From a virus (lineage: Duplodnaviria; Heunggongvirae; Uroviricota; Caudoviricetes), in the IMG/VR virus record IMGVR_UViG_3300038450_000150: a stretch of 64,000 nucleotides of DNA, one strand, 5' to 3'. Under the pieces are notes generated by a model, which saw only the letters and a list, made by a program, of their open reading frames with translations, was not told the DNA's origin and did no database searches. Each line of letters begins with the position of its first letter. Positions within the stretch are counted from its first letter, which is position 1. The position numbers and the translations under genes were made by a program. This document shows positions 3,271-56,047 of this stretch, in pieces.

Positions 3271-3534
3271 TCAGTCCTCATTGAGTTCTCGTGCAATCTT
3301 ATGGAGAGCCATATCGTAACCACAGTGGGAACAGTGAACATAAATCCACTGTCTCTCTTCCATAATATTTCCGTAACTGTCTAGAGTTCGAAAACCACCA
3401 TCATGGTCATACTCCCTTAAACCGCTTCCTCTTAATGCCTTTCCACAGAGGCAAGTTGGCTTCTTACTCTCTATCAGGTTGGCCAGATAGGTTAAGTCTA
3501 TCGGTTCTTCGAGTCTGTTCGTCATATTGGTCAA
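3271..3534 (-). CDS. Zn-binding small protein (87 aa)
   Basis: CLCGK...HCSHCGY cysteine pairs. TTTATAAA at 3555-3562 lies 20 nt upstream. Confidence 0.4.
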   Translation of the reverse strand: MTNMTNRLEEPIDLTYLANLIESKKPTCLCGKALRGSGLREYDHDGGFRTLDSYGNIMEERQWIYVHCSHCGYDMALHKIARELNED

Positions 3535-4543: not shown

Positions 4544-4588
4544 ATCATTCGTCTAAAATGATGTGTGTGTGTTTATAAAGATTGTGGA

Positions 4589-5143
4589 TTAAAGTGCTGG
4601 ATGACGGCTGAGTATCCACCTGGAAAAACTATCACCATATTTCTCATCTATTGTCTTTTGATCGAGTGTCAGAAACCCAGTCTTTATGTCACCACAAGTG
4701 AATTCTATATTTTGACCAGCCAGTGTGTGTAATACACCAATTACAATACTTGAAGTCCTGTAGTCATATATTAAATTATTAACAGCATATGGGAAACTAC
4801 CAAAGATGTGTTGACAGATGTAGTGTACTCTGAATTCCGTGTCTGTGTAATAGTTCTCTTTTGGATGTACTATAACTTCTCTATGATCACTACCAAGTTT
4901 AGAGTACACCTTAAAACTGGGACTTTTGGCTTTTGAGGTTTTGACTGCCTTCATTCCCCAGTTCCATTGCATCTCATCTGCTCCAAGCCAACGTTTTATA
5001 GTTTCAAGATCCTTGAAAATGAATTTTGCTTCAACACCTGTTACTGATAGTCCTTTTGGAGCAATTTCATAGAGATAAATTTCAAATGTTGTGGTTTCTT
5101 TACGATCTTCGCTTATTGGTACAGTTATTCCATCGTAGACCAT
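4589..5143 (-). CDS. hypothetical protein (184 aa)
   Basis: ORF in series. Confidence 0.4.
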   Translation of the reverse strand: MVYDGITVPISEDRKETTTFEIYLYEIAPKGLSVTGVEAKFIFKDLETIKRWLGADEMQWNWGMKAVKTSKAKSPSFKVYSKLGSDHREVIVHPKENYYTDTEFRVHYICQHIFGSFPYAVNNLIYDYRTSSIVIGVLHTLAGQNIEFTCGDIKTGFLTLDQKTIDEKYGDSFSRWILSRHPAL

Positions 5144-5479: not shown

Positions 5480-5746
5480 TTATAAATATTGTGGAACTGG
5501 AGATACCTTATTTATATAATCTGGGTGATTTTTTAGCAATTCCATAGTCTCTTTGAAATAATGCGCCCAAGATCGTGAACCACACATCGGACAGGTGGAG
5601 AAAACCATAACCTTCTCGGAATCACCATAGTCCCTGATGTCCTTCATTGTTCGAAGCCAGTCGAAGTGTGTTGATGTTTTATATCCACATTCTGGGCATT
5701 CATCACTCATTCCCAGTCGGTGGCTTCTTTCCATTATTAGACTCAT
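5480..5746 (-). CDS. Zn-ribbon protein (88 aa)
   Basis: CPECGYK...CPMCGS. TATA variant tttataag at 5769. Confidence 0.4.
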   Translation of the reverse strand: MSLIMERSHRLGMSDECPECGYKTSTHFDWLRTMKDIRDYGDSEKVMVFSTCPMCGSRSWAHYFKETMELLKNHPDYINKVSPVPQYL

Positions 5747-6884: not shown

Positions 6885-6930
6885 TTTAGTTCGTGTAAGA
6901 GTATGTGTTGGTATTTATAAAGATTGTGGA

Positions 6931-7296
6931 TTATGGGTTATGAAGTTTGATTTCGAGATCTTCCATAATAACATCGTCTAAAAAGTGGGTGTCAACTATG
7001 GATTGAATATCAAACACTGGGCAATAATCAATGCCTGGTTTAAGTTTGCCTACTATGTGGTGTAATGGCTCGTGAACCATACAATAGAGCACAAAATCAT
7101 AGATTGTCATATATTTCTTGTATCGAGTCAGGAAAAGACCAATGTTCTCCGCATTGTCTTTAATCTGTGGATGATCTATTGGAAAATCAGAAAAATCAAA
7201 ATAAACAACACCTGTTTCTGTGTTGATACAGGCGTGTAAGTCTGTCATTTCAAAAAACACTTCAACATCTTCGGTTGGAGTGAGGGAGATATCCAT
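6931..7296 (-). CDS. hypothetical protein (121 aa)
   Basis: ORF. Confidence 0.35.
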   Translation of the reverse strand: MDISLTPTEDVEVFFEMTDLHACINTETGVVYFDFSDFPIDHPQIKDNAENIGLFLTRYKKYMTIYDFVLYCMVHEPLHHIVGKLKPGIDYCPVFDIQSIVDTHFLDDVIMEDLEIKLHNP

Positions 7297-10335: not shown

Positions 10336-11088
10336 TTACTTCTTCCTAAAGATGTTTAGTACAAGATCAACAACACAGAACGCTATCGCTATTACCGAGA
10401 GCAATGTGCTCCATATAGGTGCAGAATCACCTTGTGCGCCTGTTGCTCCAGTAAGTCCTACTGGACCTTGAACTCCCTGAATGCCTTGGATGCCTTGTGC
10501 GCCTGTTAATCCAGTCGCTCCTGTTGCGCCTGTGTCACCCTTATCACCTTTGATACCTTGAATTCCCTGATCTCCTTTTTGTCCCTGTGAACCAACTGGA
10601 CCAACTGGGCCTTGTGGACCCCTTGCTCCAGTAGCACCAGTGGAACCAGTTGCACCAGTTTCACCAGTAGAACCTGTCGCACCCGTTGCTCCAGTGGAAC
10701 CAGTCGCTCCAGTATCTCCCTTGGGACCAGGCGTTAGTTGAATGTTTCCAATTTCAGTCTGGAGATTTGTAATCTGTGTTTGTAGGCTATCAAGCCTTGT
10801 TTGAATTACAGAATCACCATCTGTACACTTCTCGATATCCTCAACTTCAGATGTTAATGCAGCTAGTTGGGACTTCAACTGTAGGAGAAGTGTTTGGTCA
10901 CAGTTGTTTGTTAGTGCATTTATCTTAACATTCAGAGCGTTAATCTGATTCTGTAGATCAGTAATTTGCCCTGGAATGCCATTGTTGTTATTATTTCCAT
11001 CATCACACGCAAGAGCGTGTGGAACAACAAGAACCGACATTAAAAATAGGCATACTATGCCTATTAATCCTCTCTTTTTGATCATCAT
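10336..11088 (-). CDS. collagen-like repeat membrane protein (250 aa)
   Basis: Signal/TM N-terminus, heptad coiled coil, about 45 G-x-y triplets ([13 protein letters not shown]...[10 protein letters not shown]), C-terminal TM helix. Confidence 0.65.
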
Positions 11089-14681: not shown

Positions 14682-14804
14682 TTTTGGTCAACCAGTTTGT
14701 CTGCCGATAAGCATCGTAGCTATGGTACGAGAGCATATAAATATTATCAGGTCATTATCAAATGAAGAAAATTTATTATAAAAAAATTATGTGGGTGTTT
14801 ATAA

Positions 14805-14874
14805 TTCACCCACCTTTACTTTACTTCACTATACTAAACTCTACAAGACTTCACAACACACTACATTACTATAC
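14805..14874. repeat. G-free pentamer-periodic tract (NNNAC)x13 on the + strand, i.e. (GTNNN)n on the gene strand
   Basis: ttcac ccacc tttac tttac ttcac tatac taaac tctac aagac ttcac aacac actac attac tatac, with AC every 5 nt. Lies upstream of the nrdD leader. Confidence 0.6.
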
Positions 14875-14922
14875 TTCATTAAATTAATAACCATATATTA
14901 CATTTATAAATATTATCACCTA

Positions 14923-18839: not shown

Positions 18840-19181
18840 TTAGATTTCCTTCCAATCATTTGTGTATAATTTTGCACGATACTTACCAACTTTGAAACTT
18901 CCAGTGGAAATTGCTATTTGCAAAACAAACTGCAAGTCTCTATATATTTCCATCATTCTTGTTTCAACATCATCTGAGTAACCACCATTTTCATCTGGTT
19001 CTATTCCAAGTATTCTTCCTATATCACCAAACACATATGAGTTACCAAATGGCCGTTTTGGGTCGATTGATGGTGCTCCAAATTCTGTGTCTGTCCAGTC
19101 CACATATAGTTCCTTTAGAAGTTTGATATGATTTCTTTTGATTTCAAAATATTGATATTTATCGTCCTTAGTTCTTGGCAT
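18840..19181 (-). CDS. hypothetical protein (113 aa)
   Basis: ORF. Confidence 0.35.
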   Translation of the reverse strand: MPRTKDDKYQYFEIKRNHIKLLKELYVDWTDTEFGAPSIDPKRPFGNSYVFGDIGRILGIEPDENGGYSDDVETRMMEIYRDLQFVLQIAISTGSFKVGKYRAKLYTNDWKEI

Positions 19182-19747
19182 TATTTATCCCTCTTACCAT
19201 AATCCTTCTTACAGGGTGCTGGGACAACCTTTCCATCTGCTTGAAGCAGGACGTTTTCACATTTTCCACAGTTGTGATCACACTCTTCAAAGAAGTTGTG
19301 CGAAACCGAGATTGGGACATCTCTAATCATCATATCATCGTATCGTCCAGTTCTAATATATTTGAGTAAATGAACCTTGTCAACCTCATCTGGGATGCAA
19401 ATCTTTCTGCCTGGAAGAACTAGAACATTTGCCTCAACACGAATCTTTGGACAGGTTTGGCGGTTTCTTGAGAGAACTTCAGCATTGTAGATTATGTTTC
19501 TAATCATATTTGTATAGAGCCAGACGTTCTCTGTTATTGTGTAGCAGAGTTTGAGGATCCTGTAGATATCTGGGTGTGATAATGGCTCACCACCAGAGAT
19601 ATTGATTCTATCTATGTCCTTGTGAAGGAGAAGGAACTTCTCTATCTCTTCAAATGGAAGCGGTTTGCCCTCTGGTGTTGCAGAGGACGAGCAGACTTCA
19701 CAATCCTCTTCACAGAATTGTGTGATTTCTATTGTTACTTCAACCAA
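19181..19747 (-). CDS. radical-SAM enzyme (NrdG-like RNR activase or QueE-like)
   Basis: CEEDCEVC (C-x3-C-x2-C) plus ISGGEPL. 188 aa. nrdD lies 4.5 kb away on the same strand. Confidence 0.55.
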   Translation of the reverse strand: MVEVTIEITQFCEEDCEVCSSSATPEGKPLPFEEIEKFLLLHKDIDRINISGGEPLSHPDIYRILKLCYTITENVWLYTNMIRNIIYNAEVLSRNRQTCPKIRVEANVLVLPGRKICIPDEVDKVHLLKYIRTGRYDDMMIRDVPISVSHNFFEECDHNCGKCENVLLQADGKVVPAPCKKDYGKRDK

Positions 19748-31055: not shown

Positions 31056-32900
31056 TTAGACTGCTTTGGTAGCTGCCTCTTTCTTTCGAAGCATCTGAGC
31101 CAGCCAGACATTGAGTAGGTTGCCTTGGGCTTCTCCACCATTGCCACCTGAAACTAGGATATCAGGTGTGATAGTGATCTTGCCAGAGGCAATCTGCTCG
31201 AACACCTTTAGCATTGCAACGTTGTCCTGACCTAGGACACCCATCTGTGCAGCATATGCTTTAGCTGTACCTACACCTTCCTGTTCATTCTTGTAAGCTG
31301 TACCGTCTGCCTGAGCCTTAGTTGCATCACGAACACCAGCAGCTTCCATCCTTGCTGCATCTGCACGGTCTGCTGCAATATCGATTGACAGTTTAGCTGA
31401 GATAACGTCAGTCTGCTTGTCAGCCCTTGCCGTTTTCTCTGCTACAGCAATCCTCTGCTCCTGTGCAAGTGCTTCCTGCTGGTACTGTGCCTGTTGCTGG
31501 GCAGCTATTTCCTTCTTTGTCTGAGTTTCTAGTAGTGCCTTGTCAACATCAATGTAAGCAATTAGCAGCCCCTGAACCTCTGTGTGGTACTTCGAGAACT
31601 CTTCACGAGCCTTCTCAAGTGCCTGTTCCTGTAGTTCAGTTCGGCTGTGGACGAACTGCATTGCCTGTTTCTTGCCAGCTTCGTTACGGAAGGAGGAGTC
31701 GATCAGTGGGTGAGCAACCTGTTCAATCAGGTTCTGTACAGTACCGAACCTTGCAATCACGAAAGGTGCATTGGCTGGAGGTACACGGATGATGAGCCTG
31801 ACATCTACATCAAGCTGGAACCCATCCATTGAAGTTACACGAAGTTGGCTGAACTTGAAGAACTCTGTGATCTTCTGGCTCTGGGAAACGTCCTTTCCCT
31901 GAGCTCCAAGTACACGTGTCTCTGCTGGACCCTCAGTTGATGCCCAATCTATAGTGATAGCGGAAGTAGGTACTAACTCAGGCTTGTAGGCGATTTGGTT
32001 AAGGTTGTACTTTCCAGGTGTAACTGGCTCGGCCAGAATACCACGCTGGTTCTTGTCAGTGATTAGAAGAGACTCAACTGTCTCTGGAATTGGGGAATTG
32101 AGATCAGGTGTCTTGCTGATTTTTGGTGCTTCACCACTAGGCTGGACTTCCTTTCCAACACTGGAAATGATTACAGCAACGTAGCCTGGTGGGACAACAG
32201 CAACATCATAGAGAGTGACTTGGAATAGGTTAGTATTTATGTAGTAATCACCTGGCTGAAGTGTCTCAAGTTGTGGACCCCTGTAGCCACCAGCCTCAAT
32301 GAAGGCTTGGCTGTCTTGGAAGTGCTTGTGATCTGATGTGGGTGCTGGAGCAATTATGAAACCAGATGGCAGTGAATTGCCATCCATAGCAACAACTACA
32401 CCGACCCTCTCCTGTGGAACTTGTACTGCACCAACTGCTGTGACTTTGAATACAGCTAGGTTGATACGATAAACACCTGGGCGAAGTACACCAATCTGAG
32501 GACCCTTCTTTCCACCATTCTTGAGGAATGCCCCTGCATCTTGGTACGAATTACATTCAACCTCATCTGCAAGGATACGACCAGATGGAATGGATTGTCC
32601 GTCAATGGACTCAACTAGACCAATATTTCCCTGTGGAATCTCGGTCACTTCGACCTTCTTAATCTTCCAGATTATGGGGAAACGCCAGTAAAGTCCAGGC
32701 ATAAGGGTTTCAGCTTGAATACCGACCTCACCCTCAGTAGCAATGATTTTTCCCTGTGGTAATTTCTTGCCAAACATTTTCTTAACTAGGATACCGACCT
32801 CACCAGCTTTGATGAGAGCGAATCCTGGTAGCACGAAGAAAACTAAGCATATTAGTACGACAATGCCTAGAATCCCTAGTCCGATTAGATCTTCAAACAT
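31056..32900 (-). CDS. SPFH/flotillin-like (YqiK-type) membrane protein with internal repeats
   Basis: N-terminal TM. Duplicated about 90-aa segment (FQDSQAFIEAGGYRGPQLETLQPGDYYIN versus YQDAGAFLKNGGKKGPQIGVLRPGVYRIN). C-terminal Ala/Glu/Gln-rich coiled coil and ITITPDILVSGGNGG...LLNVWLAQML tail typical of the flotillin C-terminus. Confidence 0.65.
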   Translation of the reverse strand: MFEDLIGLGILGIVVLICLVFFVLPGFALIKAGEVGILVKKMFGKKLPQGKIIATEGEVGIQAETLMPGLYWRFPIIWKIKKVEVTEIPQGNIGLVESIDGQSIPSGRILADEVECNSYQDAGAFLKNGGKKGPQIGVLRPGVYRINLAVFKVTAVGAVQVPQERVGVVVAMDGNSLPSGFIIAPAPTSDHKHFQDSQAFIEAGGYRGPQLETLQPGDYYINTNLFQVTLYDVAVVPPGYVAVIISSVGKEVQPSGEAPKISKTPDLNSPIPETVESLLITDKNQRGILAEPVTPGKYNLNQIAYKPELVPTSAITIDWASTEGPAETRVLGAQGKDVSQSQKITEFFKFSQLRVTSMDGFQLDVDVRLIIRVPPANAPFVIARFGTVQNLIEQVAHPLIDSSFRNEAGKKQAMQFVHSRTELQEQALEKAREEFSKYHTEVQGLLIAYIDVDKALLETQTKKEIAAQQQAQYQQEALAQEQRIAVAEKTARADKQTDVISAKLSIDIAADRADAARMEAAGVRDATKAQADGTAYKNEQEGVGTAKAYAAQMGVLGQDNVAMLKVFEQIASGKITITPDILVSGGNGGEAQGNLLNVWLAQMLRKKEAATKAV

Positions 32901-32941: not shown

Positions 32942-32963
32942 TTTATAAATATTTGGAATTTGG
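32942..32963 (-). promoter_or_regulatory. BRE/TATA-like promoter motif upstream of the SPFH gene
   Basis: tttataaatatttggaatttgg. Confidence 0.5.
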
Positions 32964-33045
32964 TGGGGTTACAAGGAGTCGAACCCTGACCCTTGGTTTT
33001 CCCCTATTTCTGGGGACCAAGATGCTACCGCTACACCATAACCCC
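32961..33045 (-). tRNA. tRNA with an apparent 13-20 nt insertion in the anticodon region (intron-like), isotype undetermined
   Basis: Minus-strand sequence GGGGTTA...GGTTCGACTCC...TAACCCCACCA has acceptor and T-arm. The segment CTTGG-TCCCCAGAAATAGGGGAAAA-CCAAG is too long for a 7-nt anticodon loop. Confidence 0.5.
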
Positions 33046-34440: not shown

Positions 34441-34520
34441 TGGCGGGTTCGGAGGGATTTGAACCCCCGACAAGTGGATTAAAAGTCCACTGCGCTAAGA
34501 CCTGACTGCGCCACGAACCC
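34441..34520 (-). tRNA. tRNA-Lys (anticodon TTT), CCA encoded
   Basis: GGGTTCG...GTGGA-CTTTTAA-TCCAC...GGGGGTTCAAATCCCTC-CGAACCC-G-CCA. Own TATA at 34543. Confidence 0.75.
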
Positions 34521-34559
34521 AGCACTGAATAGTATGACTGAATTTATAAATATTGTGAA

Positions 34560-34637
34560 TGGTGGACTCGAAGGGATTTGAACCCCTGACCCTTGGCTTA
34601 GAAGGCCAATGCTCTATCCAAGCTGTGCTACGAGTCC
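34560..34637 (-). tRNA. tRNA-Arg (anticodon TCT), CCA encoded
   Basis: GGACTCG...GGCCTTCTAAGCC...GGGGTTCAAATCCC...CGAGTCC-A-CCA. Confidence 0.75.
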
Positions 34638-34639
34638 AA

Positions 34640-34719
34640 TGGTGAGTCTGAGGGGATTTGAACCCCTGAATGGAGGATTAAGGGTCCTCTGCGCTAGACC
34701 TTGCTACGCCACAGACTCA
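34640..34719 (-). tRNA. tRNA-Lys (anticodon CTT), CCA encoded
   Basis: GAGTCTG...GAGGACCCTTAATCCTC...GGGGTTCAAATCCCC...CAGACTC-A-CCA. TATA at 34739, about 20 nt upstream. Confidence 0.75.
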
Positions 34720-38158: not shown

Positions 38159-38235
38159 TGGTGGCGAAGAGCAGACTTGAACTGCTGATGCCCTGATTAT
38201 CAGTCAGGTGGACTACCAAGCTGTCCTACTTCGCC
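38159..38235 (-). tRNA. tRNA-Ile (anticodon GAT), CCA encoded
   Basis: GGCGAAG...CCTGA-CTGATAA-TCAGG...CAGCAGTTCAAGTCTGCTG? T-arm...CTTCGCC-A-CCA. Confidence 0.7.
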
Positions 38236-38240
38236 AAGAA

Positions 38241-38321
38241 TGGTAGAGAGGATGGGATTCGAACCCACATAAAGGCAAGGATTATGAGTCCTCCGAGATA
38301 ACCAGGTTCCTCTACCTCTCT
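38241..38321 (-). tRNA. tRNA with anticodon CAT (Met, or Ile2 if lysidine/agmatidine-modified); 81 nt, 8-nt variable loop
   Basis: AGAGAGG...GAGGA-CTCATAA-TCCTT...GTGGGTTCGAATCCCAT-CCTCTCT-A-CCA. Only 5 nt from tRNA-Ile. TATA at 38343-38350, 21 nt upstream. Confidence 0.6.
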
Positions 38322-38353: not shown

Positions 38354-39811
38354 TTATTCTCTGACGATGTAAAGGTTGTTTAATGACCTTGTTAGAGCTA
38401 CAAACTTGCAGTTATCTTCCTCTTTCAACTGCTGGGGATTGCCCTGCTTTACAGCATATGGGTGTGGCATAAGATCATAGCGGAGTATGTAGACGTTCTC
38501 AGACTCAAGTCCCTTAGCCCTATGAACACTGCTGAAAACTATGCCCTCAATATTGTCACGGAAAATGAATTTCACTTTTGATGTAAGATCGGTTATGGTT
38601 TTGCTCTCATCGGCTATAGCAAAGATTGTGTCAACCCTGTCACTGAGGGTGAGTATTGATGCTTCCTTTTTCTGGATCTTCAACTTCTCGGTCTGCTTCT
38701 GCTGGTACTCTTTCAGACCGATTAGGAAAGTGCTGAGATCGGTAGCACCACACATCTTTACGACACGGTTGATTAGGTTCTCAAGCTGATCGCCTATGCT
38801 CTTGCCAACAATTATGACCTTCTTGCCGTTTCGAATAAGTTCGAAGGCTGGTTCTACGAGAGGGGCATTTGTTCGGCAGAGAACCATATCCTTCGGCTGG
38901 ACTTTTTTCATAAATGTGGGATAGTCTATTTCCTCAACTTTTCCCTGCTTGGCATTTGGACCACATTCGTGTGTGATGTTTGGGAAGGTCTTGTTTACAA
39001 AGGCAACGACAGACTTTGGGTTTCTGTAACTGATGCTGAGTGGAAATTCGACAGCATCAAGCATATTTCCCAAGTAATCCATAGCATTGATTCCAGCTCC
39101 ACGGAAACCGTATATGGCTTGGTTTCTGTCACCGATTACTATTGTGCATCCGTTGGGTTTCCTGATTTTGAGGATCATTTGAACCTGAGTCTCGTTCAAG
39201 TCCTGTGCCTCATCAACAAGGACATAATCGTATTTTCTCATTGGGATATCGAGAACGACAGGAAGCCAGATCATATCATCATAATCGATTGTTTGTGTGT
39301 CTTTTTTAGATCGTTGTATAACATAATTAACGGCCTTGAACACTGTTTTTTCATTACCATTTAATTTAATGTTATAGAAATCACACATTTCAATCATAGA
39401 ATCTTCATCTTCTGAATCTGTTAATGTGTTTTTCACATATTGAACAACTTTAGCAATTGTCTGCCAGAGCATTTTATTGACAACAGTGTCCTCTAGGATT
39501 GAGTATGTTTTTTGATTGTCCATAATGAAATTACCATATACATTACGAAGTTCACGATTGCCAAGAGAATGAAGTGTTTTTGCTTCTCCACCAGGCATAT
39601 TTGCTAGTTTTTCTTTTGCCTCAAGTTGATTCTTTTTATTAAAAACAAGATATATCCAGCTTTTATTTTTTGGTATATAATTTTTAATAAACTCTTGAAT
39701 TGTTCGAGTTTTACCAGAGCCAGCAGTTGCACTCACTATGATGTTCTTATCTCCCTTTCTGCCAGCCTCAAAGATTGCCTTCTGGTATGAGGACGGGACG
39801 AATGTTGACAT
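38354..39811 (-). CDS. UvrD/PcrA/Rep-family SF1 DNA helicase
   Basis: Walker A ATAGSGKTR, motif II VLVDEAQDLNETQ, motif III VIGDRNQAIYGFRGA. Confidence 0.75.
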   Translation of the reverse strand: MSTFVPSSYQKAIFEAGRKGDKNIIVSATAGSGKTRTIQEFIKNYIPKNKSWIYLVFNKKNQLEAKEKLANMPGGEAKTLHSLGNRELRNVYGNFIMDNQKTYSILEDTVVNKMLWQTIAKVVQYVKNTLTDSEDEDSMIEMCDFYNIKLNGNEKTVFKAVNYVIQRSKKDTQTIDYDDMIWLPVVLDIPMRKYDYVLVDEAQDLNETQVQMILKIRKPNGCTIVIGDRNQAIYGFRGAGINAMDYLGNMLDAVEFPLSISYRNPKSVVAFVNKTFPNITHECGPNAKQGKVEEIDYPTFMKKVQPKDMVLCRTNAPLVEPAFELIRNGKKVIIVGKSIGDQLENLINRVVKMCGATDLSTFLIGLKEYQQKQTEKLKIQKKEASILTLSDRVDTIFAIADESKTITDLTSKVKFIFRDNIEGIVFSSVHRAKGLESENVYILRYDLMPHPYAVKQGNPQQLKEEDNCKFVALTRSLNNLYIVRE

Positions 39812-39813
39812 TT

Positions 39814-40038
39814 TTATACTTCCAATGCTAATTCTCTACAAAGTTGTATAAACTCATTTTCTTGGCGTAGTGGATTAATATCCTCAATTTTTGAATTAAA
39901 AATATAACCACATTTTGGGCAGAGGCAATAATTCATCCAATAGCGATCTTCAATCAGCTTACGATAATAAAGTGGTTTTATATCACATTGTGGGCATACC
40001 CTATTTAGGATAATGTCCAAGTCCCTGTTGGTCAACAT
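39814..40038 (-). CDS. Zn-ribbon protein (74 aa)
   Basis: CPQCD...CLCPKCGY. Promoter motif at 40068-40087. Confidence 0.35.
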   Translation of the reverse strand: MLTNRDLDIILNRVCPQCDIKPLYYRKLIEDRYWMNYCLCPKCGYIFNSKIEDINPLRQENEFIQLCRELALEV

Positions 40039-40084
40039 TTTATACGGTGTAGATGTGTTTAGTACTCTTATAAATATTGTGGAT

Positions 40085-40285
40085 TATAGTTACAGGGGAG
40101 TGATTGGCTCCCCTGCCTGAGCTTCCTTGGTTATCAACCAGTGGACATTGAGACATACACGGTGATCAGTCGTGCTGTTACTCATTCTCAGGACGTATTT
40201 ACCTGTCGCTTTCCCGATTACTAGTCGGGAGCAACATAGGGAACCACACCATTGGTAAGGTGTTACGCACAGGTTCCTTCGTAGA
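40085..40285 (-). ncRNA. candidate structured non-coding RNA (about 200 nt), class unknown
   Basis: GC about 50% versus about 35% nearby. Many stable hairpins (GGGGAG/CUCCCC, GGAACC...GGUUCC enclosing ACACC/GGUGU, CCCGA/UCGGG, CACG/CGUG). Flanked by TATA motifs at 40302 (correct spacing for a minus-strand TSS near 40280) and 40069. The embedded 67-aa ORF has only a 9-nt TATA-to-ATG gap. Confidence 0.4.
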
Positions 40286-40313
40286 AGAAACACGTTAAGA
40301 CTTTATAAATATT

Positions 40314-40389
40314 TGGAGCCCCAGGCAGGACTCGGACCTGCGACCATCAACTTACAAGGTTGACGCACTACCAACTATGCTACAGGGGC
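40314..40389 (-). tRNA. tRNA-Thr (anticodon TGT), CCA encoded
   Basis: GCCCCTG...TCAAC-CTTGTAA-GTTGA...GGTCCGAGTCC...CTGGGGC-T-CCA. One T-T mismatch in the acceptor stem. TATA variant at 40416. Confidence 0.65.
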
Positions 40390-40425
40390 AACAGTGGTAA
40401 AAGGTATGTGTATGGTTATAAATAT

Positions 40426-40929
40426 TTAGATAAAAACAGGAATTTTGTTTATTTTCATTAAGTCTTTAATTGTTATTATTTTTACTTCATTTTCTATATA
40501 ATTTCTAATATTTTCCCATCCCCAGATACATTGTTCATTTTTAACATCTATAAATGGTTCATTATGTTCTTGTGCATTATCCATTGAAGATATTGGATAT
40601 TGTAATAATTTTAAGAGTGGTATCATCACTGCGTTTGTACCACCTTTATTTATTTGAATATAATATGAATATGGTTTTGCATATTTTAATTTACGTTCTA
40701 AAAAATGAACAGAATTGAATGAAAAATAATCGTTCCAATATTTCTCGTGATTTTCTACTTCTATACCACCGACTAATGTTAGAGACTTCATAATTTGTAT
40801 ATCAATATCATATTTCTTTTCATTTCTTTTAATCCAAAACACATTTGATTTAATATTTTTAAAAACACAATTTATTGCAGGATCATTAAATTTTTTATTT
40901 GCTTTCTCGTCATATTCCTTATGACCCAA
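40426..40929 (-). CDS. hypothetical protein (167 aa) with very low-GC codon usage, possible nuclease
   Basis: Lys/Asn/Ile-rich; composition distinct from neighbours. Weak D...E-x-K-like spacing (DIDIQIMK...IEVENHEK). Confidence 0.35.
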   Translation of the reverse strand: MGHKEYDEKANKKFNDPAINCVFKNIKSNVFWIKRNEKKYDIDIQIMKSLTLVGGIEVENHEKYWNDYFSFNSVHFLERKLKYAKPYSYYIQINKGGTNAVMIPLLKLLQYPISSMDNAQEHNEPFIDVKNEQCIWGWENIRNYIENEVKIITIKDLMKINKIPVFI

Positions 40930-40933
40930 GAGA

Positions 40934-42730
40934 TCACCTAATAGCTTCCTTAAACCACTTCGGGAAGAATCCTATATTCTGGTTGAATAAGTCTGAGAAC
41001 TTCCCATCAATTATGAAAGTCTCACCCCAATCGTCAACACTTCTACAGACTCTACCATAAGTCTGGATTAGGAGCATTGCGGTTGTCCAGTTGTACCAGG
41101 ATTGATCCTTTTCGACCCTCTTCTTAATCTGAGGATCACCGAGAGATGGATAGGGTACTTTAACTAGGACTTGCCATCTAGCCAAATCATCTTTTAGGTC
41201 GATGCCCATTTTCATACTCGGTGTTGTCATAATGCAAGGTGCTTTTGCTTGGAAGAATCTCTCGAAAGTATCTTCACGCCTCTCATCTGTGTCAATAAAG
41301 TTTCCTCTCTCATCTCTAAGAGAAACATTGGTCATCATATACTGCTTGTATTTTGAATTAGCCATAATATATCTTGCAATTTCGTTATTGTGAGTGTGTA
41401 TTACACCTTTGTGCTGCAAACGAGTTGGAATGATATCGTTGTCAATTATTCTAAGCATATTCGGTAGGAACTGATCCATTTCTTTGAAAATCGCTCTTCC
41501 AGCAAATTTTTGGTAGAGTGGACGATGTTCGACTGGGAATGTTGAGTTGCCTATTCTGAAAAACTTAACCTCTTCTTCTATGCCTAAGTATTTCTGTAAT
41601 TTTTCTTTGTCAAGTATTGTGGCCGATATAAGAATGTGTTTGTCAGTGTGCTTGAAAAGCTGGTCAGAATATTTATTAATTGTAACTGGTTTGAAAGTGG
41701 CAGATGTTTTGTCTTTTAAGACAACCCAGTTATCAATATCATCTTCTAGACTATCTAGCAACTCTGTGATTCTATTTGTTATATTTTCAACTGTTTTACG
41801 ACTCTTCAGTTCTTGTACACGATTTGAACTATCACCTATATCCCTTTGGATTGAGGCGAAAGTTCCATACTTTTCTGAGATCCCTTTAAGTTCACCCTGG
41901 ATATTCTGCAACCATTTTTCCCAATCTTCCATTTTTGTGTATTCTGGTATTATTGGAAATGGCATATCTTTAAAATACATCCAAATACCATTAAATGTTC
42001 TCGAAGAAATTAAAACTTCAATATAGGTCATTAAAGTATTTTCGATTGTGTGTGCCTCATCAAAGATTCCTAAAAATCTTTTATTGAAGCTGTGTGCGTG
42101 ATTTTGTTCGTGAAGGTAATAGGAATAGTTGTGGATGGTAAGAGGTGAATGGATTGCCTTGTCCTTGGCTTGCCAGTAGGCACAGAGTGGATAAGAACAA
42201 TTGCTCCAATCGAACTTAACTCCAAACTTGTCACGATCTGCTCTCGGTGACGCATTATCATCTTCAAAATTTTCTGGGTCAATTTCAGCACCCATCTCCA
42301 TATCGGTTAGTGCAGACTCACGTTTTACTTGGTTTGCCTTGTGGGGGCATTTGTAACCATTAATCAGGGTACACGGTGCTCTGTCTGCATAGAGTGTGTT
42401 CCCTATTCTCTCAGCCCAAAACTCTGGTTCCATATCTCCTGCTGTGAGAGAGCAGGGATAATTGCCCCTACCTTTGATTAGTGCTATGTCTGGAAAATCA
42501 CGTAGATACTGTCCCTGTAGGTAGATGTCGTTTACAACAAAGTGTGTAAGGTTGCCATATTCCTGATAGACATACTTAGCGATTGCATAGGCTACAGGTG
42601 ACTTACCAAAGCCTGTAGGTGCTTCTAGGAAGATGTAATTGTAGGGATCAAGGTTGGCTTCTATAAGACTTAGGATTTCCTTCTGGTATGGACGGAATTC
42701 CTTGAATGGGAAACAGGCTTCAATTGCCAA
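40934..42730 (-). CDS. XPD/Rad3-like SF2 (DEAH) helicase with Fe-S cluster cysteines
   Basis: Walker A EAPTGFGKS, DEAH box FDEAHTIEN, Cys cluster between them (CSLTAG...CTLINGYKCPH...CSYPLC), C-terminal VKVPYPSLGDP. Confidence 0.65.
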   Translation of the reverse strand: MAIEACFPFKEFRPYQKEILSLIEANLDPYNYIFLEAPTGFGKSPVAYAIAKYVYQEYGNLTHFVVNDIYLQGQYLRDFPDIALIKGRGNYPCSLTAGDMEPEFWAERIGNTLYADRAPCTLINGYKCPHKANQVKRESALTDMEMGAEIDPENFEDDNASPRADRDKFGVKFDWSNCSYPLCAYWQAKDKAIHSPLTIHNYSYYLHEQNHAHSFNKRFLGIFDEAHTIENTLMTYIEVLISSRTFNGIWMYFKDMPFPIIPEYTKMEDWEKWLQNIQGELKGISEKYGTFASIQRDIGDSSNRVQELKSRKTVENITNRITELLDSLEDDIDNWVVLKDKTSATFKPVTINKYSDQLFKHTDKHILISATILDKEKLQKYLGIEEEVKFFRIGNSTFPVEHRPLYQKFAGRAIFKEMDQFLPNMLRIIDNDIIPTRLQHKGVIHTHNNEIARYIMANSKYKQYMMTNVSLRDERGNFIDTDERREDTFERFFQAKAPCIMTTPSMKMGIDLKDDLARWQVLVKVPYPSLGDPQIKKRVEKDQSWYNWTTAMLLIQTYGRVCRSVDDWGETFIIDGKFSDLFNQNIGFFPKWFKEAIR

Positions 42731-43730
42731 CGTCTATACCACCGAGTTGATATTTTCTTACGTGATTACGAATTGAAACCTCTGTCACGCCACAGGTTGT
42801 TGCTATAACCTTCTGGGAGATGTTAAGTTCCATCTTCTTGGATGCCAGATAAATTGCACAAGCTGCTACACAGAGTGGACTTGAGCCACTTGTGATTTTT
42901 AAGTCCTCTGCCTCTCTGCAAATCTTTAGGGCTAACATTTCAAATTCACCAGATAGGTTTAACTTAGAGGTGAACTGGGAAATAAAGATTGCAGGATCCC
43001 TGCGAGTTGGCTTGATCTTCATTGATTCTACCATAAGGCGATAGCAACGAGCAATATCCTTCTTGTCGATGCCTGTGACCTCTTCAATATTCTCCATTGT
43101 TGTTGGAATGCCATTCTCTCTGAGGCTGTAGTACATACAGGCAACTAGGATTTGCTGGATTGAACGTCCTCTAATGAGGTTTATGGCCACCGATTTTGTA
43201 AATATATCAAAGATATCGTCATCTATTGCATCTGGTATGCTGAGTCTGTATTTGTAGGTTGTATAAAGTGACCTTGCAGAGGATAGTGTTCTGGTTAGAG
43301 ATGCCTTATCACCTGTTGCCCTATTGTTCATTCTTGAAAGACGAAGATATTCTATCTTCTTTTCTCCTGTAAGTTTCTTGTTTTGACCATCTAAATTTGA
43401 CCAAGGAGCAATCCTTGTATGGCTTGAAGAGCCATTAACGACACCTGGATTTGTGATTGGCGTAGCCCTGTCAAGTTGCTGTGGCTCACCATCAAAGTTT
43501 CGCCATTCCTTGTCTCTGGAAATTACTTGTTCCTCAAGAACAACCAACCCACAGTTTTTGCAAACAACCTCACCAGTAACATTATCGTGATAGAAGTCAC
43601 GACTGCCACAAATTGGGCAGTTTAATGGAGCATCTTGTGGGGCTTCGTGGGACGGGTCATTAGACATAAACATCACTCCTATTGTACCTACATTTATAAA
43701 TATTATGAGATTTTTATCCAAACCACTCAT
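42720..43730 (-). CDS. tfb: transcription factor B (TFB/TFIIB homolog)
   Basis: N-terminal Zn ribbon CPICGS...CKNCG followed by two cyclin-like repeats. 336 aa. Confidence 0.8.
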   Translation of the reverse strand: MSGLDKNLIIFINVGTIGVMFMSNDPSHEAPQDAPLNCPICGSRDFYHDNVTGEVVCKNCGLVVLEEQVISRDKEWRNFDGEPQQLDRATPITNPGVVNGSSSHTRIAPWSNLDGQNKKLTGEKKIEYLRLSRMNNRATGDKASLTRTLSSARSLYTTYKYRLSIPDAIDDDIFDIFTKSVAINLIRGRSIQQILVACMYYSLRENGIPTTMENIEEVTGIDKKDIARCYRLMVESMKIKPTRRDPAIFISQFTSKLNLSGEFEMLALKICREAEDLKITSGSSPLCVAACAIYLASKKMELNISQKVIATTCGVTEVSIRNHVRKYQLGGIDVGN

Positions 43731-46050
43731 TTAGGTTTGCGAAACCTTCAACATTTTCCCAACCTATTCCAACTGCCTCTAGGATCCTCTCTAATGGGGA
43801 ACGCACGGTTCTTTCAATTACCCAATCATAATCTATTTCTATACCCTTTCCGACTAGGCTTTGCTTGTCTAGATATGAACACCAATTTGTTTGTTCCCAA
43901 GAACCGTTGTTAATCCTTTTTACTCTAAAGTACTTTACAAGATCACCTGGAACGATTTCTTCTTTAAGGAATTTATTTGACCAAATTGCACCGTCATAAT
44001 ATTCACCACCAGCATCCTGTTTAAGGAAGTTCTTTGAGAGGTTGACGGGGATAACTATCTGGTCGATATCGTATGTTCCACCTCTGATATCAGCCATCAA
44101 CTTACCCAACTTTGCAACAAACTCCTGTGCTTGTCCGTGCAGAACCATCTCGATACACTCTTTTTGCAGTTTGCGTGTTACCTCAGATGTGTTTCCACGG
44201 ATGTAGTCGAAACCCTTGATGAGGATGTAGTCGCAGGATCGACCATCTTCTCTAATAATACGCTGTGCATATCTCTTCTTAGCACCTGTCTCTTTGCCCT
44301 TTTTCTTAATGAAAAGGCTTTCAGAGGCATACCTATCCTCTTTGATTTTGAATTTGGCTGTCTCGGCTATGCCATTTTCCTCTGCCCACTTCAGTAACTC
44401 ATCGTTCATTGCAGCTTCGAGTTCTGGTACACGTTCCATTGGGGCATCGATGAATATGGAATCTGTATCACCGTAGATGACCTTGAAACCCATAGATTCT
44501 GCTCTCTTCTGGAGTCTGTGTAAACCATCTCCAGCAGTTTTGAGAACGAAGTCTGCCTTTGCCTTTGAGAAGATACGACTGCCCTTGAATGCAAAGTATC
44601 CCCAAGCACCTGAGAGGAAAGCCTTAACCTTATCTCGTGTGTCCTTTACAACCTTGTACTGTGCAGAACCAGGCTCATATTTCAGAAGTTCCTTGTCCCA
44701 CACTTCACGTTCACTTAATAAATCATTGATAACTGCTGGACCCAACTTGCCCCAGATATCTGGAGAAGTTTCCATAGGATAACTTCTGAGGATACTTGGG
44801 TAGTATCTGCTCATATCCAGCACGACTAAGTTTGGATAAATCTTTGGCGGTGGAGTGAACACTACACCACCATACTCTAAGTCCTCTTCACTCTGCTCCT
44901 CTGGAGAGGATGGTAGAACCATTCCAAGTCCGTGTGCTTTTCTAAGCCAGAAGCAGTCGTGACGCTTAATGTGTTCGAGTGTGTAGTTTATGTCGTGAAG
45001 CCCTACAAAGTTCTTCTCTCCCCAGAAGGACTGTATGAAGCGGTATTCCTTCCACTCACCAGTGTTGACATCCTTGAAGCCTCTGTCGAGCTTGACACAG
45101 TAGTCAACGTCCATCTTATTGTATAGAATGAACTCATCTCTCTTTGTAGGGTCAAGGTATGTATCGATTCTGAAGAATTCGGACACCATATCCTCTTGTT
45201 TGATTATCCCTTCCCTGATAACAACTTCCTTTAGTCTGTTACCTAGGTTTGGTCTAGTCTTTGTGTAGGCATTATGTAGGTCGAAGATTTCTGTTCCAGC
45301 CCAATCAACCTTGAGATTGAACTGTTTCTTAGCCCAAGCATCAAAGTACTCGGTATCAAATCTGATATTCCAGCCTGTAACTATATCTGGCTTGAGGTAG
45401 TCAAAATACTTCTGGATATAATCAATTAGAGCAACGTAAGAAGCAACGTGAACAACTTTCCAGTTCTCCTCTCTTTGCTCAACCTGTGTGGCCAAGAACC
45501 GATCATCAACAACAAACGTGATATATTGCTCACTTTTGTTGTCCCAGAAGGTGACACAGATAATTGGCTGAGTTGGGTTGTTCTTGTTTGGGAATCTGAT
45601 GCCCTGAGCCTTTGTCTCAATGTCCATATAGACAACTAGAGGCTGGAGAACAACATTGGCTGGTTTTATGGTGTCAAATGGAATGATTGAAGAGTTCCCA
45701 TCATAGTAGAATGAGGATTTGACACCTGTGTCAATCAGCATACGTTCTACAAATTCAATATCTGCTTCCCAATGCTTTGAGAAATTGTCTCTGTGGTTAC
45801 TTACTTCAAGTGGATTTTGAACAACTATTTTTACTAACTTTTCACCGTCTTTTGAAATGAACCCAGGCTCAATGCGTTTAATCCAAGGTGCATTCTCTGG
45901 AATTGATTCACCATCGTGGACGTACATATAAGGGTCGAACTTGGAGATTCTGAACATTCTCTTCTCTCCAGTGTTCGAGCGACAGTAAATATTAATGAAG
46001 CCTGTCTCTCCATCGTAATGACCTTTAACGTACTGCCAGACAGTGGACAT
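43714..46050 (-). CDS. polB: family B DNA polymerase
   Basis: Exo I YMDIETK, motif A LDMSRYYPS, motif C VIYGDTDSIFI. 778 aa. Confidence 0.9.
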   Translation of the reverse strand: MSTVWQYVKGHYDGETGFINIYCRSNTGEKRMFRISKFDPYMYVHDGESIPENAPWIKRIEPGFISKDGEKLVKIVVQNPLEVSNHRDNFSKHWEADIEFVERMLIDTGVKSSFYYDGNSSIIPFDTIKPANVVLQPLVVYMDIETKAQGIRFPNKNNPTQPIICVTFWDNKSEQYITFVVDDRFLATQVEQREENWKVVHVASYVALIDYIQKYFDYLKPDIVTGWNIRFDTEYFDAWAKKQFNLKVDWAGTEIFDLHNAYTKTRPNLGNRLKEVVIREGIIKQEDMVSEFFRIDTYLDPTKRDEFILYNKMDVDYCVKLDRGFKDVNTGEWKEYRFIQSFWGEKNFVGLHDINYTLEHIKRHDCFWLRKAHGLGMVLPSSPEEQSEEDLEYGGVVFTPPPKIYPNLVVLDMSRYYPSILRSYPMETSPDIWGKLGPAVINDLLSEREVWDKELLKYEPGSAQYKVVKDTRDKVKAFLSGAWGYFAFKGSRIFSKAKADFVLKTAGDGLHRLQKRAESMGFKVIYGDTDSIFIDAPMERVPELEAAMNDELLKWAEENGIAETAKFKIKEDRYASESLFIKKKGKETGAKKRYAQRIIREDGRSCDYILIKGFDYIRGNTSEVTRKLQKECIEMVLHGQAQEFVAKLGKLMADIRGGTYDIDQIVIPVNLSKNFLKQDAGGEYYDGAIWSNKFLKEEIVPGDLVKYFRVKRINNGSWEQTNWCSYLDKQSLVGKGIEIDYDWVIERTVRSPLERILEAVGIGWENVEGFANLNEWFG

Positions 46051-53713: not shown

Positions 53714-54606
53714 GATGGGATAAAATAGCACCAAAGACAACTTCCGAGTTGCTAGGAAATCCCAAGGCTCACGAGTCATTGATGAGATACGTTAAGGAAC
53801 GTACTGCTGTATGTTTAGTCGGTGATCCAGGCTCAGGAAAGACTACCGCAGCATATGTGGTGGCTCGTGAGTTAGGTTTGAATGTGATGGAGCTCAATGC
53901 TTCTGACGAGAGAACAAAGGAATCTTCCCTTCCAGAGTTTGTTGAACTCTGCCAACAAGTACCAATGACAGGAGAAGGACTTCTTTTCCTGTTAGATGAG
54001 GTAGATGGTATGGGTTCGGTTGATGGTAAGGGAGCCTGGGAGTATGTCAAAGATATTTTGAAGTACTCCAAACACGCTGTTGTGTTGACTTGTAATGATG
54101 ATTATAAAATTCCTGCTACAGTGAAAGGTTTACTTGTAACTGTTAAGTTGATAAAACCCAATGTAAAAACTGTTGAAAAATATGCTGCTAAAATTGCAAA
54201 GGAAAATTTGCGTACAACTGCACCTACAACTGATGAATTGACATCTGACTTTAGAAATGCTATTAATGTTGCACTATTTGGTGGAGAACCCTACAAAGAA
54301 CAGAATACATACACATTGACACACAAGTTCTTCGTTGAAGGGGATGTGGAGAGGATTGATGATGTTCCTCTACCTTTCCTCTTTGACAATGCCCCAAACT
54401 ATCTAAAGGGGTGGGACTTGTTCCAGTTTTACAGAGTACTCAGAATATCAGCTATTAGCAATCAAACTGGAGCACTGTCCTTATCCCCCAGAGGTTCTGG
54501 GACATATGCCAGATTCCCTGGCTATATGAGAATGCGATCTAGTCGCAAGAAGGGTGAGGATGATGTCGAATCAACAACAACAGACGAAAACGGGCAGAAG
54601 AGTTGA
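53710..54606 (+). CDS. rfcL: RFC large-subunit-like AAA+ clamp-loader protein
   Basis: Walker A GDPGSGKTT. LNASDERT box. Walker B LLDEVDGM. 298 aa. Confidence 0.6.
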   Translation: MRWDKIAPKTTSELLGNPKAHESLMRYVKERTAVCLVGDPGSGKTTAAYVVARELGLNVMELNASDERTKESSLPEFVELCQQVPMTGEGLLFLLDEVDGMGSVDGKGAWEYVKDILKYSKHAVVLTCNDDYKIPATVKGLLVTVKLIKPNVKTVEKYAAKIAKENLRTTAPTTDELTSDFRNAINVALFGGEPYKEQNTYTLTHKFFVEGDVERIDDVPLPFLFDNAPNYLKGWDLFQFYRVLRISAISNQTGALSLSPRGSGTYARFPGYMRMRSSRKKGEDDVESTTTDENGQKS

Positions 54607-56047
54607 ACTAACTTCTTCTGGTTTGGTTAGAGAACTAACCGAGTTTATGCTAGATGGGGTAAACACCCATCCAGATTGGGTAGAAAGTTTGGCAGTAGCT
54701 TTAGTTGGTATGTTGGCTGGAAAGAACAGGTATATGGTCAACAACCTTGGAAAGGTCAGGGCTAATCTATTCTTCATTATAGTTGGGGCTAGTGGACTCA
54801 GTATGAAGTCTGTGCCACTTATGAAGGTGGCTAGACCTATTCTGAAGAAACTTACTAAGGCTGTAAATGATGACGTACTGAAAGATGCTGGAATCAAGGA
54901 AGAGGAATTCCTAGCACGTAAGATGGCCAACAACAAGGCAGATGCTAAGGAGAGAGGAAAGGACGAGTGGAAAAAGGAGAAGGCTTGGCTTGATGAGTTG
55001 GAGAAAAGTATGGTTGATTTTGTCACACCTACCAGCTTCACGTCAGAACTTCTCACAACATTCCTGAGCAAGCACCCACAGGGTTTAATCTGTGGTGACG
55101 AGTACACCAAGATGTTCAAGGGAACTTTGAAGAAAGATTACCTTACAGACAATATGGAAGATCTCAGTCGAATGTATGACTGTGATATGGAGAAGAAGGG
55201 TACTCAGACTAGGGGAATCGAGAACCCAGAGGATGCCTATGTTAGCTTTACTTCCGCTACTACATATTATCTTCTGACAATAATGACCGATGACTTTTTC
55301 CTACAGGGAACAGGTAATCGGATACTCTGGATTCTTGATGAGGAACTTTATCCTATGGATATCGAGAAGGAAGAGGGTAAGTTCTTCTGGGACTTGAACA
55401 GGGAAACAGAGTTCAACAACAAGATGGATGAACTGGTAATCAAGCTAATGAATGTTAGGTATCTCCCAGAAGGAATCATAATGCCTAACTATGCTGCTGG
55501 AATCATGCTGGATAGATATAGGATAGAGATGTATAATGAGGCTGTAAAGAAGTTCAATGAGGATATTCTGAATAAGGATGCTAACCTAATTTCCAGACTT
55601 GCACAGAACTCTATGAAGTTGGCTTTGGCACATGCTATTGGTAGATATGCTGTAGATGACCGTGGAACATATCACGATGTTACACAACTTGAGATTGTAG
55701 AAGAGGATGCTAAATGGGCAATTGAAAAGACCAGAAAACACTATGAATACTATAAGAGAATGTGGGAAGTTGCTTCAACAATTAAGATTGGTACTATGAA
55801 GAATTACAAGGCTGACCAAGAACGTGTACTATTCATAATGGATAAGATAGAGAGTCAGGGAAAGCATATGACAACAGCCAATCTCAGAAAACACACTGGT
55901 TGGGATAAGGCAGAATGTCAGAAGTTGCTGGATACTATGGTTTCGAATGGTCAGTTAAAGTACCTTGAAGGACTGTCTGGTATTCATAAATATGGATATT
56001 ATACACACAGTACTGAAGAGGATCCTCAAGATCAAAAGACTGTGTGA
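54554..56047 (+). CDS. hypothetical protein (497 aa) with degenerate P-loop-like and DE motifs
   Basis: IVGASGLSMKS and LICGDEY. No firm family assignment. Confidence 0.45.
   Translation: MRMMSNQQQQTKTGRRVELTSSGLVRELTEFMLDGVNTHPDWVESLAVALVGMLAGKNRYMVNNLGKVRANLFFIIVGASGLSMKSVPLMKVARPILKKLTKAVNDDVLKDAGIKEEEFLARKMANNKADAKERGKDEWKKEKAWLDELEKSMVDFVTPTSFTSELLTTFLSKHPQGLICGDEYTKMFKGTLKKDYLTDNMEDLSRMYDCDMEKKGTQTRGIENPEDAYVSFTSATTYYLLTIMTDDFFLQGTGNRILWILDEELYPMDIEKEEGKFFWDLNRETEFNNKMDELVIKLMNVRYLPEGIIMPNYAAGIMLDRYRIEMYNEAVKKFNEDILNKDANLISRLAQNSMKLALAHAIGRYAVDDRGTYHDVTQLEIVEEDAKWAIEKTRKHYEYYKRMWEVASTIKIGTMKNYKADQERVLFIMDKIESQGKHMTTANLRKHTGWDKAECQKLLDTMVSNGQLKYLEGLSGIHKYGYYTHSTEEDPQDQKTV

Follow-up and report, generated by a model that had tools for sequence, protein, structure and literature searches.

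A GC-rich segment of about 200 nucleotides (positions 40085-40285) lies between two promoters on the minus strand of the 64,000-nucleotide stretch of viral DNA analysed here (the window), and it raises the question of whether it specifies a structured RNA or encodes a 67-amino-acid protein. The initial annotation called it a probable novel non-coding RNA, and that proposal is supported by the geometry of its promoter, a diverged homolog, substitutions that preserve base pairs, the outcome of a coding test and the lack of a match in Rfam.

The archaeal virus-like element to which the window belongs is large, with a length of at least 198 kb, and contigs of up to 197,619 nt carry a protein identical to its XPD-like helicase. 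The element encodes its own TFIIB/TFB homolog (42720-43730), and other replication and transcription genes in the window specify a family-B DNA polymerase (PolB, with matches to PF00136 and PF03104), an XPD/Rad3-like helicase and a UvrD-like helicase; an RFC-like clamp-loader subunit, PD-(D/E)XK and ERCC4 nucleases, a UDG, a Thg1-like enzyme and NrdD are also encoded, the last together with a radical-SAM protein (19181-19747) that may be the NrdD activase. The nearest cellular TFBs (MSBL1, Methanobrevibacter) are only 33-36% identical to that of the element, and the host would be an archaeon. Searches of INPHARED with blastn returned no sequence similar to either the element or the candidate RNA. 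Seven tRNA genes lie on the minus strand of the window (32961-33045, 34441-34718, 38159-38321 and 40314-40389). The Thg1-like protein (tRNA-His guanylyltransferase/3'-5' polymerase family; 3531-4313, minus strand; also present in relatives, e.g. L127:858-1643) is found alongside this set of viral tRNAs, which hints at virus-run tRNA maturation or repair. A 497-amino-acid DUF3987 (primase/helicase-associated) protein is encoded at 54554-56047 on the plus strand, and its C-terminal match to EAP30/Vps36 (ESCRT-II) is weak (E=1e-4).

The sequence ATATTTATAA, with at most one mismatch, occurs 60 times in the window against 11.6 expected, and about 30 exact copies on the minus strand precede genes and tRNAs; it is the BRE/TATA promoter of the element. 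An exact copy of this recurrent motif stands ahead of the RNA unit (40303-40312, minus strand), and the next motif match (40068-40077, minus) precedes a 74-amino-acid Zn-ribbon ORF (39814-40038, minus) and the UvrD-like (SF1) helicase gene (38354-39811, minus); the TATA near 40302 and the following promoter near 40069 of the initial annotation are thus both confirmed. The 5' ends of tRNAs fall 23-29 nt past the last base of their own promoter motif, and this spacing places the start of the RNA at 40279/40280 (GAAGGAACC..., beginning GAAG), close to the minus-strand start near 40280 that had been suggested. The distance from motif to predicted start or first hairpin is about 24 nt, and the predicted start is 3 nt ahead of the first helix, H1. 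Exact minus-strand motifs with no ORF start within -8 to +70 of the predicted transcription start are limited to those of the tRNAs, that of the RNA unit and one site at 14913. At this last site about 170 nt of AT-rich sequence (14745-14913, GC 0.26), with no ORF of at least 35 amino acids starting nearby, separate the exact motif (14904-14913, minus) from the NrdD promoter (14735-14744). Of the seven tRNAs, five are preceded by a BRE/TATA motif of their own whose end lies 23-29 nt ahead of the mature 5' end, which makes their transcripts leaderless or leaves them a leader no longer than about 5 nt. The remaining two (Arg after Lys, Ile after Met) trail the preceding tRNA by about 3-6 nt. The upstream neighbour of the RNA unit is a tRNA-Thr(UGU) gene (40314-40389, minus; tRNA model match) with its own promoter at 40416-40425; its 3' end, which lacks an encoded CCA, directly abuts the promoter motif that follows.

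On the downstream side, the ATG of the 74-amino-acid ORF is about 30 nt past the motif at 40068-40077, so the Zn-ribbon/helicase transcript starts separately, with a 5' untranslated region of about 6-7 nt from this proximal promoter. The 3' tail of the RNA (40071-40092, minus) ends in ACAAUAUUU. This short U-tract overlaps the same promoter and may be where transcription terminates; it also follows the terminal hairpin H6 in the homolog described below, there outside any promoter. A search past H6 found no bacterial-type terminator and no clear or strong one, so transcripts from the tRNA-Thr promoter could run into the RNA unit, or those of the RNA unit into the helicase operon. At several genes the promoter motif is lengthened upstream to about TAATCCACAATATTTATAA (minus-strand sites 2574-2593, 4573-4591, 5480-5495, 6915-6934 and 40068-40086), and this extended motif, longer than BRE/TATA alone, is perhaps matched to the element's own TFB. 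The 74-amino-acid ORF has a possible counterpart in the N-terminal extension of helicase relatives of 562-598 amino acids that are 50-54% identical (P0011-P0015), and Zn-ribbon domains (PF01396) are recorded in more distant helicase relatives (42-44% identical); it could be a domain split off from the helicase.

A single diverged homolog of the RNA was found, at L077:2765-2962 (nhmmer E=1.2e-17), on a contig of 53.6% GC that also carries the one relative of the UvrD-like helicase at 87% identity (P0002); no other relative exceeds 61%. This homolog has its own TATA motif (ATGTTTATAA) 24 nt ahead, likewise begins GAAG, and lies directly upstream of the helicase gene's own promoter. It has no tRNA upstream, no 74-amino-acid ORF and different upstream genes, and the rest of L077 is rearranged, with only two other small proteins having window counterparts (62-63% identity). 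Similarity between the two copies begins at the predicted transcription start and is absent from the spacer between TATA and start. The flanking helicases, 87% identical as proteins, agree at 27.5% of four-fold sites, with GC3 values of 0.42 against 0.87, so neutral sites are saturated. The RNA is identical at 85 of 111 positions (77%) in its 3' domain and at 38 of 70 in its 5' domain, and by this sequence comparison it is conserved far above the neutral level. The copies on L010-L016 (JGI and Logan, with identical flanking proteins) are 100% identical across the RNA region and, with zero variation, give no comparative information. The element is present in samples JGI 3300038425, SRR5824233, SRR7027862, SRR13021855, SRR12951270 and SRR7028477, and the L077 type in ERR10755942. 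Two of these contigs, L012 and L016 from the same Logan run (SRR7028477), both break inside the RNA at about 40119/40120, just before H6; an assembly artefact caused by the hairpin, or a step in coverage, may explain this.

The 67-amino-acid ORF (40090-40293, minus) is spurious by every comparison made here. Its GTG start at 40293, only 9 nt after the motif, lies upstream of the predicted transcription start, and the earlier remark that this spacing is unlike that of the protein genes was correct, since genes behind the motif start between -5 and about +40 relative to the predicted start. The recommended check of codon periodicity and protein conservation gave 22, 20 and 22 substitutions at the three codon positions of the frame (9, 12 and 7 in the 3' domain alone), with no third-position excess. 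The in-frame translations of the window copy and L077 diverge radically; L077 has no equivalent start, and its only long ORF in this frame runs into the helicase gene. A protein-coding 67-amino-acid ORF was therefore rejected. It is also absent from the JGI and Logan gene calls (L010, L011, L013).

The GC content of 40085-40285 is 0.488, at the 98th percentile of 200-nt windows. The initial annotation's figure of about 50% is thus borne out, whereas its background of about 35% is too low for the window as a whole (mean 0.39; the flanks of the RNA unit are at 0.23-0.35), and its statement that such GC is comparable only to that of the tRNAs was too strong, as 25 of 1276 windows reach this value, several of them within coding genes, namely a collagen-like gene (10336-11088) and an SPFH gene (31056-32900). 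The minus strand folds with z = -3.5 (231 nt) and the plus strand with z = -2.4; the minimum free energy (MFE) ranks third among 1596 windows and is the lowest among 78 GC-matched windows. When folding begins at the predicted transcription start, the MFE and centroid structures coincide in a modular fold. An MFE helix ACGUGUUU/AAAUACGU was rejected, because it draws on nucleotides ahead of the predicted start and has no conserved counterpart in L077.

All helices are on the minus strand. H1 (40240-40277) has a GGAACC/GGUUCC outer stem, an 8-nt internal loop on its 5' side, an ACACC/GGUGU inner stem and a loop containing UACCA, and H2 (40204-40236) is a GCU-CCCGA/UCGGG-AGC hairpin with the A-rich loop CUAGUAA. 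This 5' domain folds with z=-3.41, and for both hairpins the MFE and centroid agree. It is followed by a single-stranded linker (40193-40203) with AAUACG, identical in both homologs, and by a three-way-junction domain (40116-40192) whose closing stem H3 (CCUGAG/CUCAGG) encloses H4, with the loop ACUGAUCAC (40162-40170), and H5, with the loop UUGAUAA (40131-40137). The RNA ends in a terminal hairpin, H6 (40093-40115; CAGGGGAG-CCAAUCA-CUCCCCUG), 19 nt of which (GGGGAGCCAAUCACUCCCC) are identical in L077, where the closing A:U pair is G:C; the junction domain and H6 together give z=-2.69. Of the six hairpins proposed initially, GGAACC[ACACC-N8-GGUGU]GGUUCC, CCCGA-N7-UCGGG, CACG-N9-CGUG and GGGGAG-N7-CUCCCC are present in the MFE structure. 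CAGG-N9-CCUG is not used, because its CCUG sits in the closing stem CCUGAG/CUCAGG, and GGUU-GAUA-AACC is only partly supported, L077 favouring UGG/CCA with a 7-nt loop in this region. In L077 the position of H1 is taken by a long hairpin whose loop likewise contains UACCA, and that of H2 by UUCC-CAUAAA-GGAA. The two 5' domains, folded independently, each form two consecutive hairpins, the first with UACCA in its loop and the second with an A-rich loop, and the L077 domain has an extra closing stem; helix by helix, H1 and H2 would have their equivalents in L077. The conserved unpaired elements are AAUACG in the linker, GAGAAUG and AAGCUC in the junction, ACYGAUCAC in H4, GAU in H5 and CCAAUCA in H6.

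Comparison with relatives, another check that had been called for, shows that the L077 homolog keeps the structure by means of compensatory changes. RNAalifold predicts 43 pairs from the two homologs, 10 of them with both sides changed. For the pair test we fixed 29 pairs in the well-aligned 3' domain (H3-H6), and all 29 are standard pairs in both homologs, with five compensatory and two wobble changes; the 21 pairs of the three-way junction include none broken, four compensatory and two wobble-compatible. When partners were slid by 1-3 columns as a control, 33-47% were paired and none was compensatory, and in a simulation that placed 26 substitutions at random positions with the observed substitution spectrum, a mean of 6.6 pairs was broken (P(0 broken)=2.6e-4; P(>=5 compensatory)=7e-5). 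Two stems of L077 contain G:U pairs, which would be A:C mismatches on the opposite strand, so only the promoter strand fits as the RNA strand. The 3' domain of L077 folded alone has the same topology as the window copy, and L077 is no better folded than its own shuffles (z=-0.25 at full length, -1.22 for the 3' domain). Each of the five compensatory changes replaces A:U by G:C, as the GC shift of L077 would favour, and with only two diverged lineages the covariation amounts to one pairwise comparison. For the same reason, since two lineages alone carry the RNA, the structure of its 5' domain and its mechanism are matters that we infer.

We then asked how the candidate relates to described RNA families. 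The 4227 covariance models of Rfam 15 were applied at the gathering threshold, or at E<=10 in a 600-nt space (39900-40500). Across the whole window they detect only the seven tRNAs; at E<=10 in 39900-40500 they find the neighbouring tRNA-Thr and two noise matches outside the candidate, and in L077:2700-3030 only a 17-bit noise match. The Rfam/Infernal check suggested by the initial annotation thus leaves the candidate unmatched, in line with its failure to recognise RNase P, SRP or H/ACA signatures by eye. A tRNA or tRNA-like RNA was rejected, as ARAGORN and RF00005 find no cloverleaf in the candidate, RF00005 even at E<=10; these two tools, or RF00005 alone, do detect the neighbouring tRNAs and an intron-containing tRNA in the relative L135. 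In size the candidate resembles archaeal SRP RNA and the minimal, type T form of archaeal RNase P RNA (about 200 nt), and its surroundings (viral tRNA genes, including co-transcribed pairs, and the Thg1-like enzyme) are compatible with RNase P. Archaeal RNase P RNA (A, M and T), which should have a P4 pseudoknot, was nevertheless rejected, since no model matches either homolog at E<=10; by reading, the CR-I (GAGGAAAGUCC-like) and CR-V motifs are absent from the candidate, and a P4-like helix of 5-6 bp (5' GAAGCC/GGCUUU) occurs in L077 only and is not conserved in the window copy. SRP (7S) RNA, judged by the helix 8 motifs, the UGUNR and loop pairing of the Alu domain and a match to the archaeal SRP model, was rejected with no match at E<=10 in either homolog. 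Archaeal C/D box sRNAs are 50-70 nt long, against about 200 nt for the candidate, and have boxes C (RUGAUGA) and D (CUGA) forming a K-turn together with 10-12-nt guides; this class was rejected because L077 has AAUGGGC where the window copy has AAUGAGU, and covariation assigns these nucleotides to a Watson-Crick helix. An archaeal H/ACA sRNA should have a hairpin whose pseudouridylation pocket is two-sided, an ACA box some 14 nt 3' of that pocket, and a K-turn or K-loop; the internal loop of H1 is one-sided, H6 has no pocket and no conserved ACA stands at the required distance, so this class was rejected as well. What is found is what a new non-coding RNA family should display, namely its own promoter, a homolog conserved above the neutral rate and compensatory pairs, in two lineages only.

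The RNA family is rare. Neither nhmmer nor covariance model searches matched any of about 76 loci of helicase relatives that are 25-64% identical (IMG/VR and JGI metagenomes). A covariance model built from the two 3' domains (CM R1; window and L077), run over the window and about 1.5 Mb of relatives' loci, recovered only its two training sequences, and loci reached through UvrD (55-61%), XPD (78%) and TFB searches (L079-L083, L127-L137) are without the RNA even with the model's filters off. Pattern scans, four on IMG/VR and one on GTDB genomes, gave two bacteriophage terminator hairpins in IMG/VR for GGGGAGCCAATCACTCCCC, no IMG/VR match for GAGAATGNGNNACNGCNNGACNGATCACCG, five IMG/VR and 36 bacterial GTDB matches for GAGAATG..GATCACC..CCAATCA, and 45 IMG/VR matches for GAGAATG..GATCAC..AAGCTC; no pattern match scores with CM R1, so all are chance matches. 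No further homolog was thus found in IMG/VR, GTDB genomes, INPHARED or the 1.5 Mb of relatives' loci. The RNA is missing from the vicinity of the flanking helicase genes in relatives whose helicases are 55-78% identical, so it is dispensable for the virus group.

We consider it rather probable that 40071-40280 (minus) specifies a stable and structured RNA of some 200-210 nt that is non-coding, belongs to an undescribed family, binds protein and acts in trans. Such an RNA would be transcribed from its own consensus BRE/TATA promoter, arranged as in tRNA genes, and the transcript would begin right at the first helix. It would then fold into H1, H2, the AAUACG linker, the three-way junction of H3 around H4 and H5, and the invariant H6, and would act in trans as a protein-binding (RNP) RNA, for which the strictly conserved loops ACYGAUCAC, GAU and CCAAUCA, together with H6, may serve as recognition surfaces. 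The tRNA-like layout, the promoter before the next gene in both genomes and the conservation of the loops and H6 all point to a stable trans-acting RNA that is most likely protein-bound. The adjacent SF1 helicase/Zn-ribbon pair is the only partner candidate that the context offers, and the SF1 helicase, as the only conserved neighbour of the RNA, is a weak hint of a functional link. That the RNA and the SF1 helicase with its Zn-ribbon form a conserved two-part module of large archaeal viruses, in which the RNA, as a dedicated cofactor, guides, loads or regulates the helicase, seems to us very unlikely; such an RNA might form multimers by means of its self-complementary GAUC loop, in the way that the loops of phi29 pRNA do, and the module, if real, would be an RNP of a type so far undescribed for the replication of archaeal viruses or the takeover of their hosts.

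The position of the RNA directly upstream of the UvrD-like helicase in both genomes, despite their rearranged surroundings, and the lack of a strong terminator after H6 would also suit a cis-acting leader or processed 5' element of the Zn-ribbon/helicase operon, controlling expression or stability of the helicase mRNA. A riboswitch or 5' leader was rejected as a class because in both genomes the RNA is cut off from the following ORF by a consensus promoter and no riboswitch or leader family matches; the 5' untranslated region of about 6-7 nt left to that ORF resembles those of other first genes of the element, and relatives have the same helicase without the RNA element, so we regard control in cis as unlikely. 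Regulation in trans by antisense pairing, in which H4 would pair with GGUGAUC-type Shine-Dalgarno sequences and shift the balance between Shine-Dalgarno-led and leaderless translation, or in which the loops would pair with viral mRNAs, is quite unlikely. GAUCACC in H4 is identical to part of the 16S rRNA 3' tail (GAUCACCUCC) and is conserved within the 9-nt loop of both homologs, and operon-internal genes have GGAGG, GGAGGTGA or AGGTGATC as Shine-Dalgarno sequences while promoter-proximal genes look leaderless. However, the window has 11 GGTGATC sites where 8 are expected, which is no enrichment (18 of 100 shuffles have at least that many), and the core anti-Shine-Dalgarno CCUCC is missing from the H4 loop. 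A search of the window for antisense targets returned only promoter self-matches, one 12-nt match in a coding region and a perfect 14-nt complement between RNA nt 126-139 (40142-40155) and the PolB mRNA (45613-45626, minus); the last is within chance, with an expectation of about 0.1, and the nucleotides that it involves on the RNA side are mostly base-paired and are not kept in L077, while other matches of k>=11 are dominated by the shared promoter motif.

The surrounding genes, which include PolB, TFB, two helicases, RFC-like and nuclease genes, might instead suggest an element that works at the level of DNA or replication, such as an origin-associated transcript, a primer RNA or protein-binding inverted repeats, and the stems of the window copy are all Watson-Crick, with the plus strand folding well too. 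We hold this to be highly improbable, since the G:U pairs of L077 would be mismatched on the other strand, conservation starts exactly at the predicted transcription start, the cumulative GC skew has no turning point at the RNA, and neither iterons nor an AT-rich unwinding element are present. Finally, the existence of a 67-codon ORF and of adjacent tRNA genes might be taken to mean that the segment encodes a small protein or is a GC-rich relic without function, for example of decayed tRNAs. This is hardly credible, given the coding results above, the failure of the tRNA model to find anything in the candidate at E<=10, and conservation far beyond the saturated neutral level with all tested pairs preserved.

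We regard the segment as a real structured RNA gene. It is new as a family, but as a kind (a virus-encoded small stable RNA near tRNA genes) it is preceded by phage T4 species 1 and 2 (rnaC and rnaD), stable RNAs of about 140 nt with no known function whose genes lie in a cluster of viral tRNA genes and which are processed out of a precursor shared with the tRNAs. Like these, the candidate lies in a tRNA-rich region and is organised as a tRNA unit; unlike them, it has its own archaeal promoter and a host of a different domain, it resembles no INPHARED record, and its L077 homolog has no upstream tRNA. The phi29-type pRNA (RF00044) has about 120-174 nt, its own promoter, a three-way junction and two mutually pairing loops. 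The candidate shares with it a self-complementary GAUC in H4 and a GAU in the H5 loop that is complementary to AUC in the H4 and H6 loops; it differs in giving no Rfam match at E<=10 and in a loop complementarity of only 3-4 bp that does not covary, and the matches of PolB to PF00136 and PF03104 suggest that the element is not of the protein-primed phi29 type; no packaging genes were seen. The Hgc and SscA RNAs of AT-rich archaeal genomes, which Klein et al. 2002 reportedly found through GC-content screens, are similar in being strongly structured GC islands in an AT-rich genome with an archaeal promoter. The candidate differs from them in being on a viral or mobile element rather than a chromosome, and the Rfam library that we scanned, which we take to include these families, holds none that matches it.

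Reports of non-coding RNA genes in archaeal viruses are, to our knowledge, very few. The candidate is cleanly delimited, has predicted tRNA-like expression, is under strong purifying selection and belongs to no described family; it puts a concrete RNA into large uncultivated archaeal viruses (at least 198 kb) that have their own TFB, tRNAs and Thg1-like enzyme, and elements of this group may run their cycle with RNAs as well as proteins.

Relatives with a 55%-identical helicase contain a different GC-rich (0.56-0.60) unit of about 120 nt (L127:14500-14660, L128:14486-14646 and L131:6350-6500, all plus strand), behind the TATA AAAGTTTAAATATC and inside a 192-nt gene-free gap. It forms the hairpins GGAUGCCC/GGGCAUCC and GGGAGUGGGGGA/UCCCCCACUCCC, has no Rfam match and is unrelated in sequence to the candidate, and its position differs between L127 and L131; this unit may be a further small RNA of the virus group that has escaped annotation. 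A second GC-rich, promoter-driven unit of this sort (L127, L131) suggests that small RNAs are a wider habit of the group. In a relative with a 78%-identical XPD, a tRNA gene (L135:2898-2985, plus strand) has a consensus promoter, an encoded CCA and a 13-nt intron in its anticodon loop; it was missed by ARAGORN and is recovered by RF00005 at 46.6 bits.
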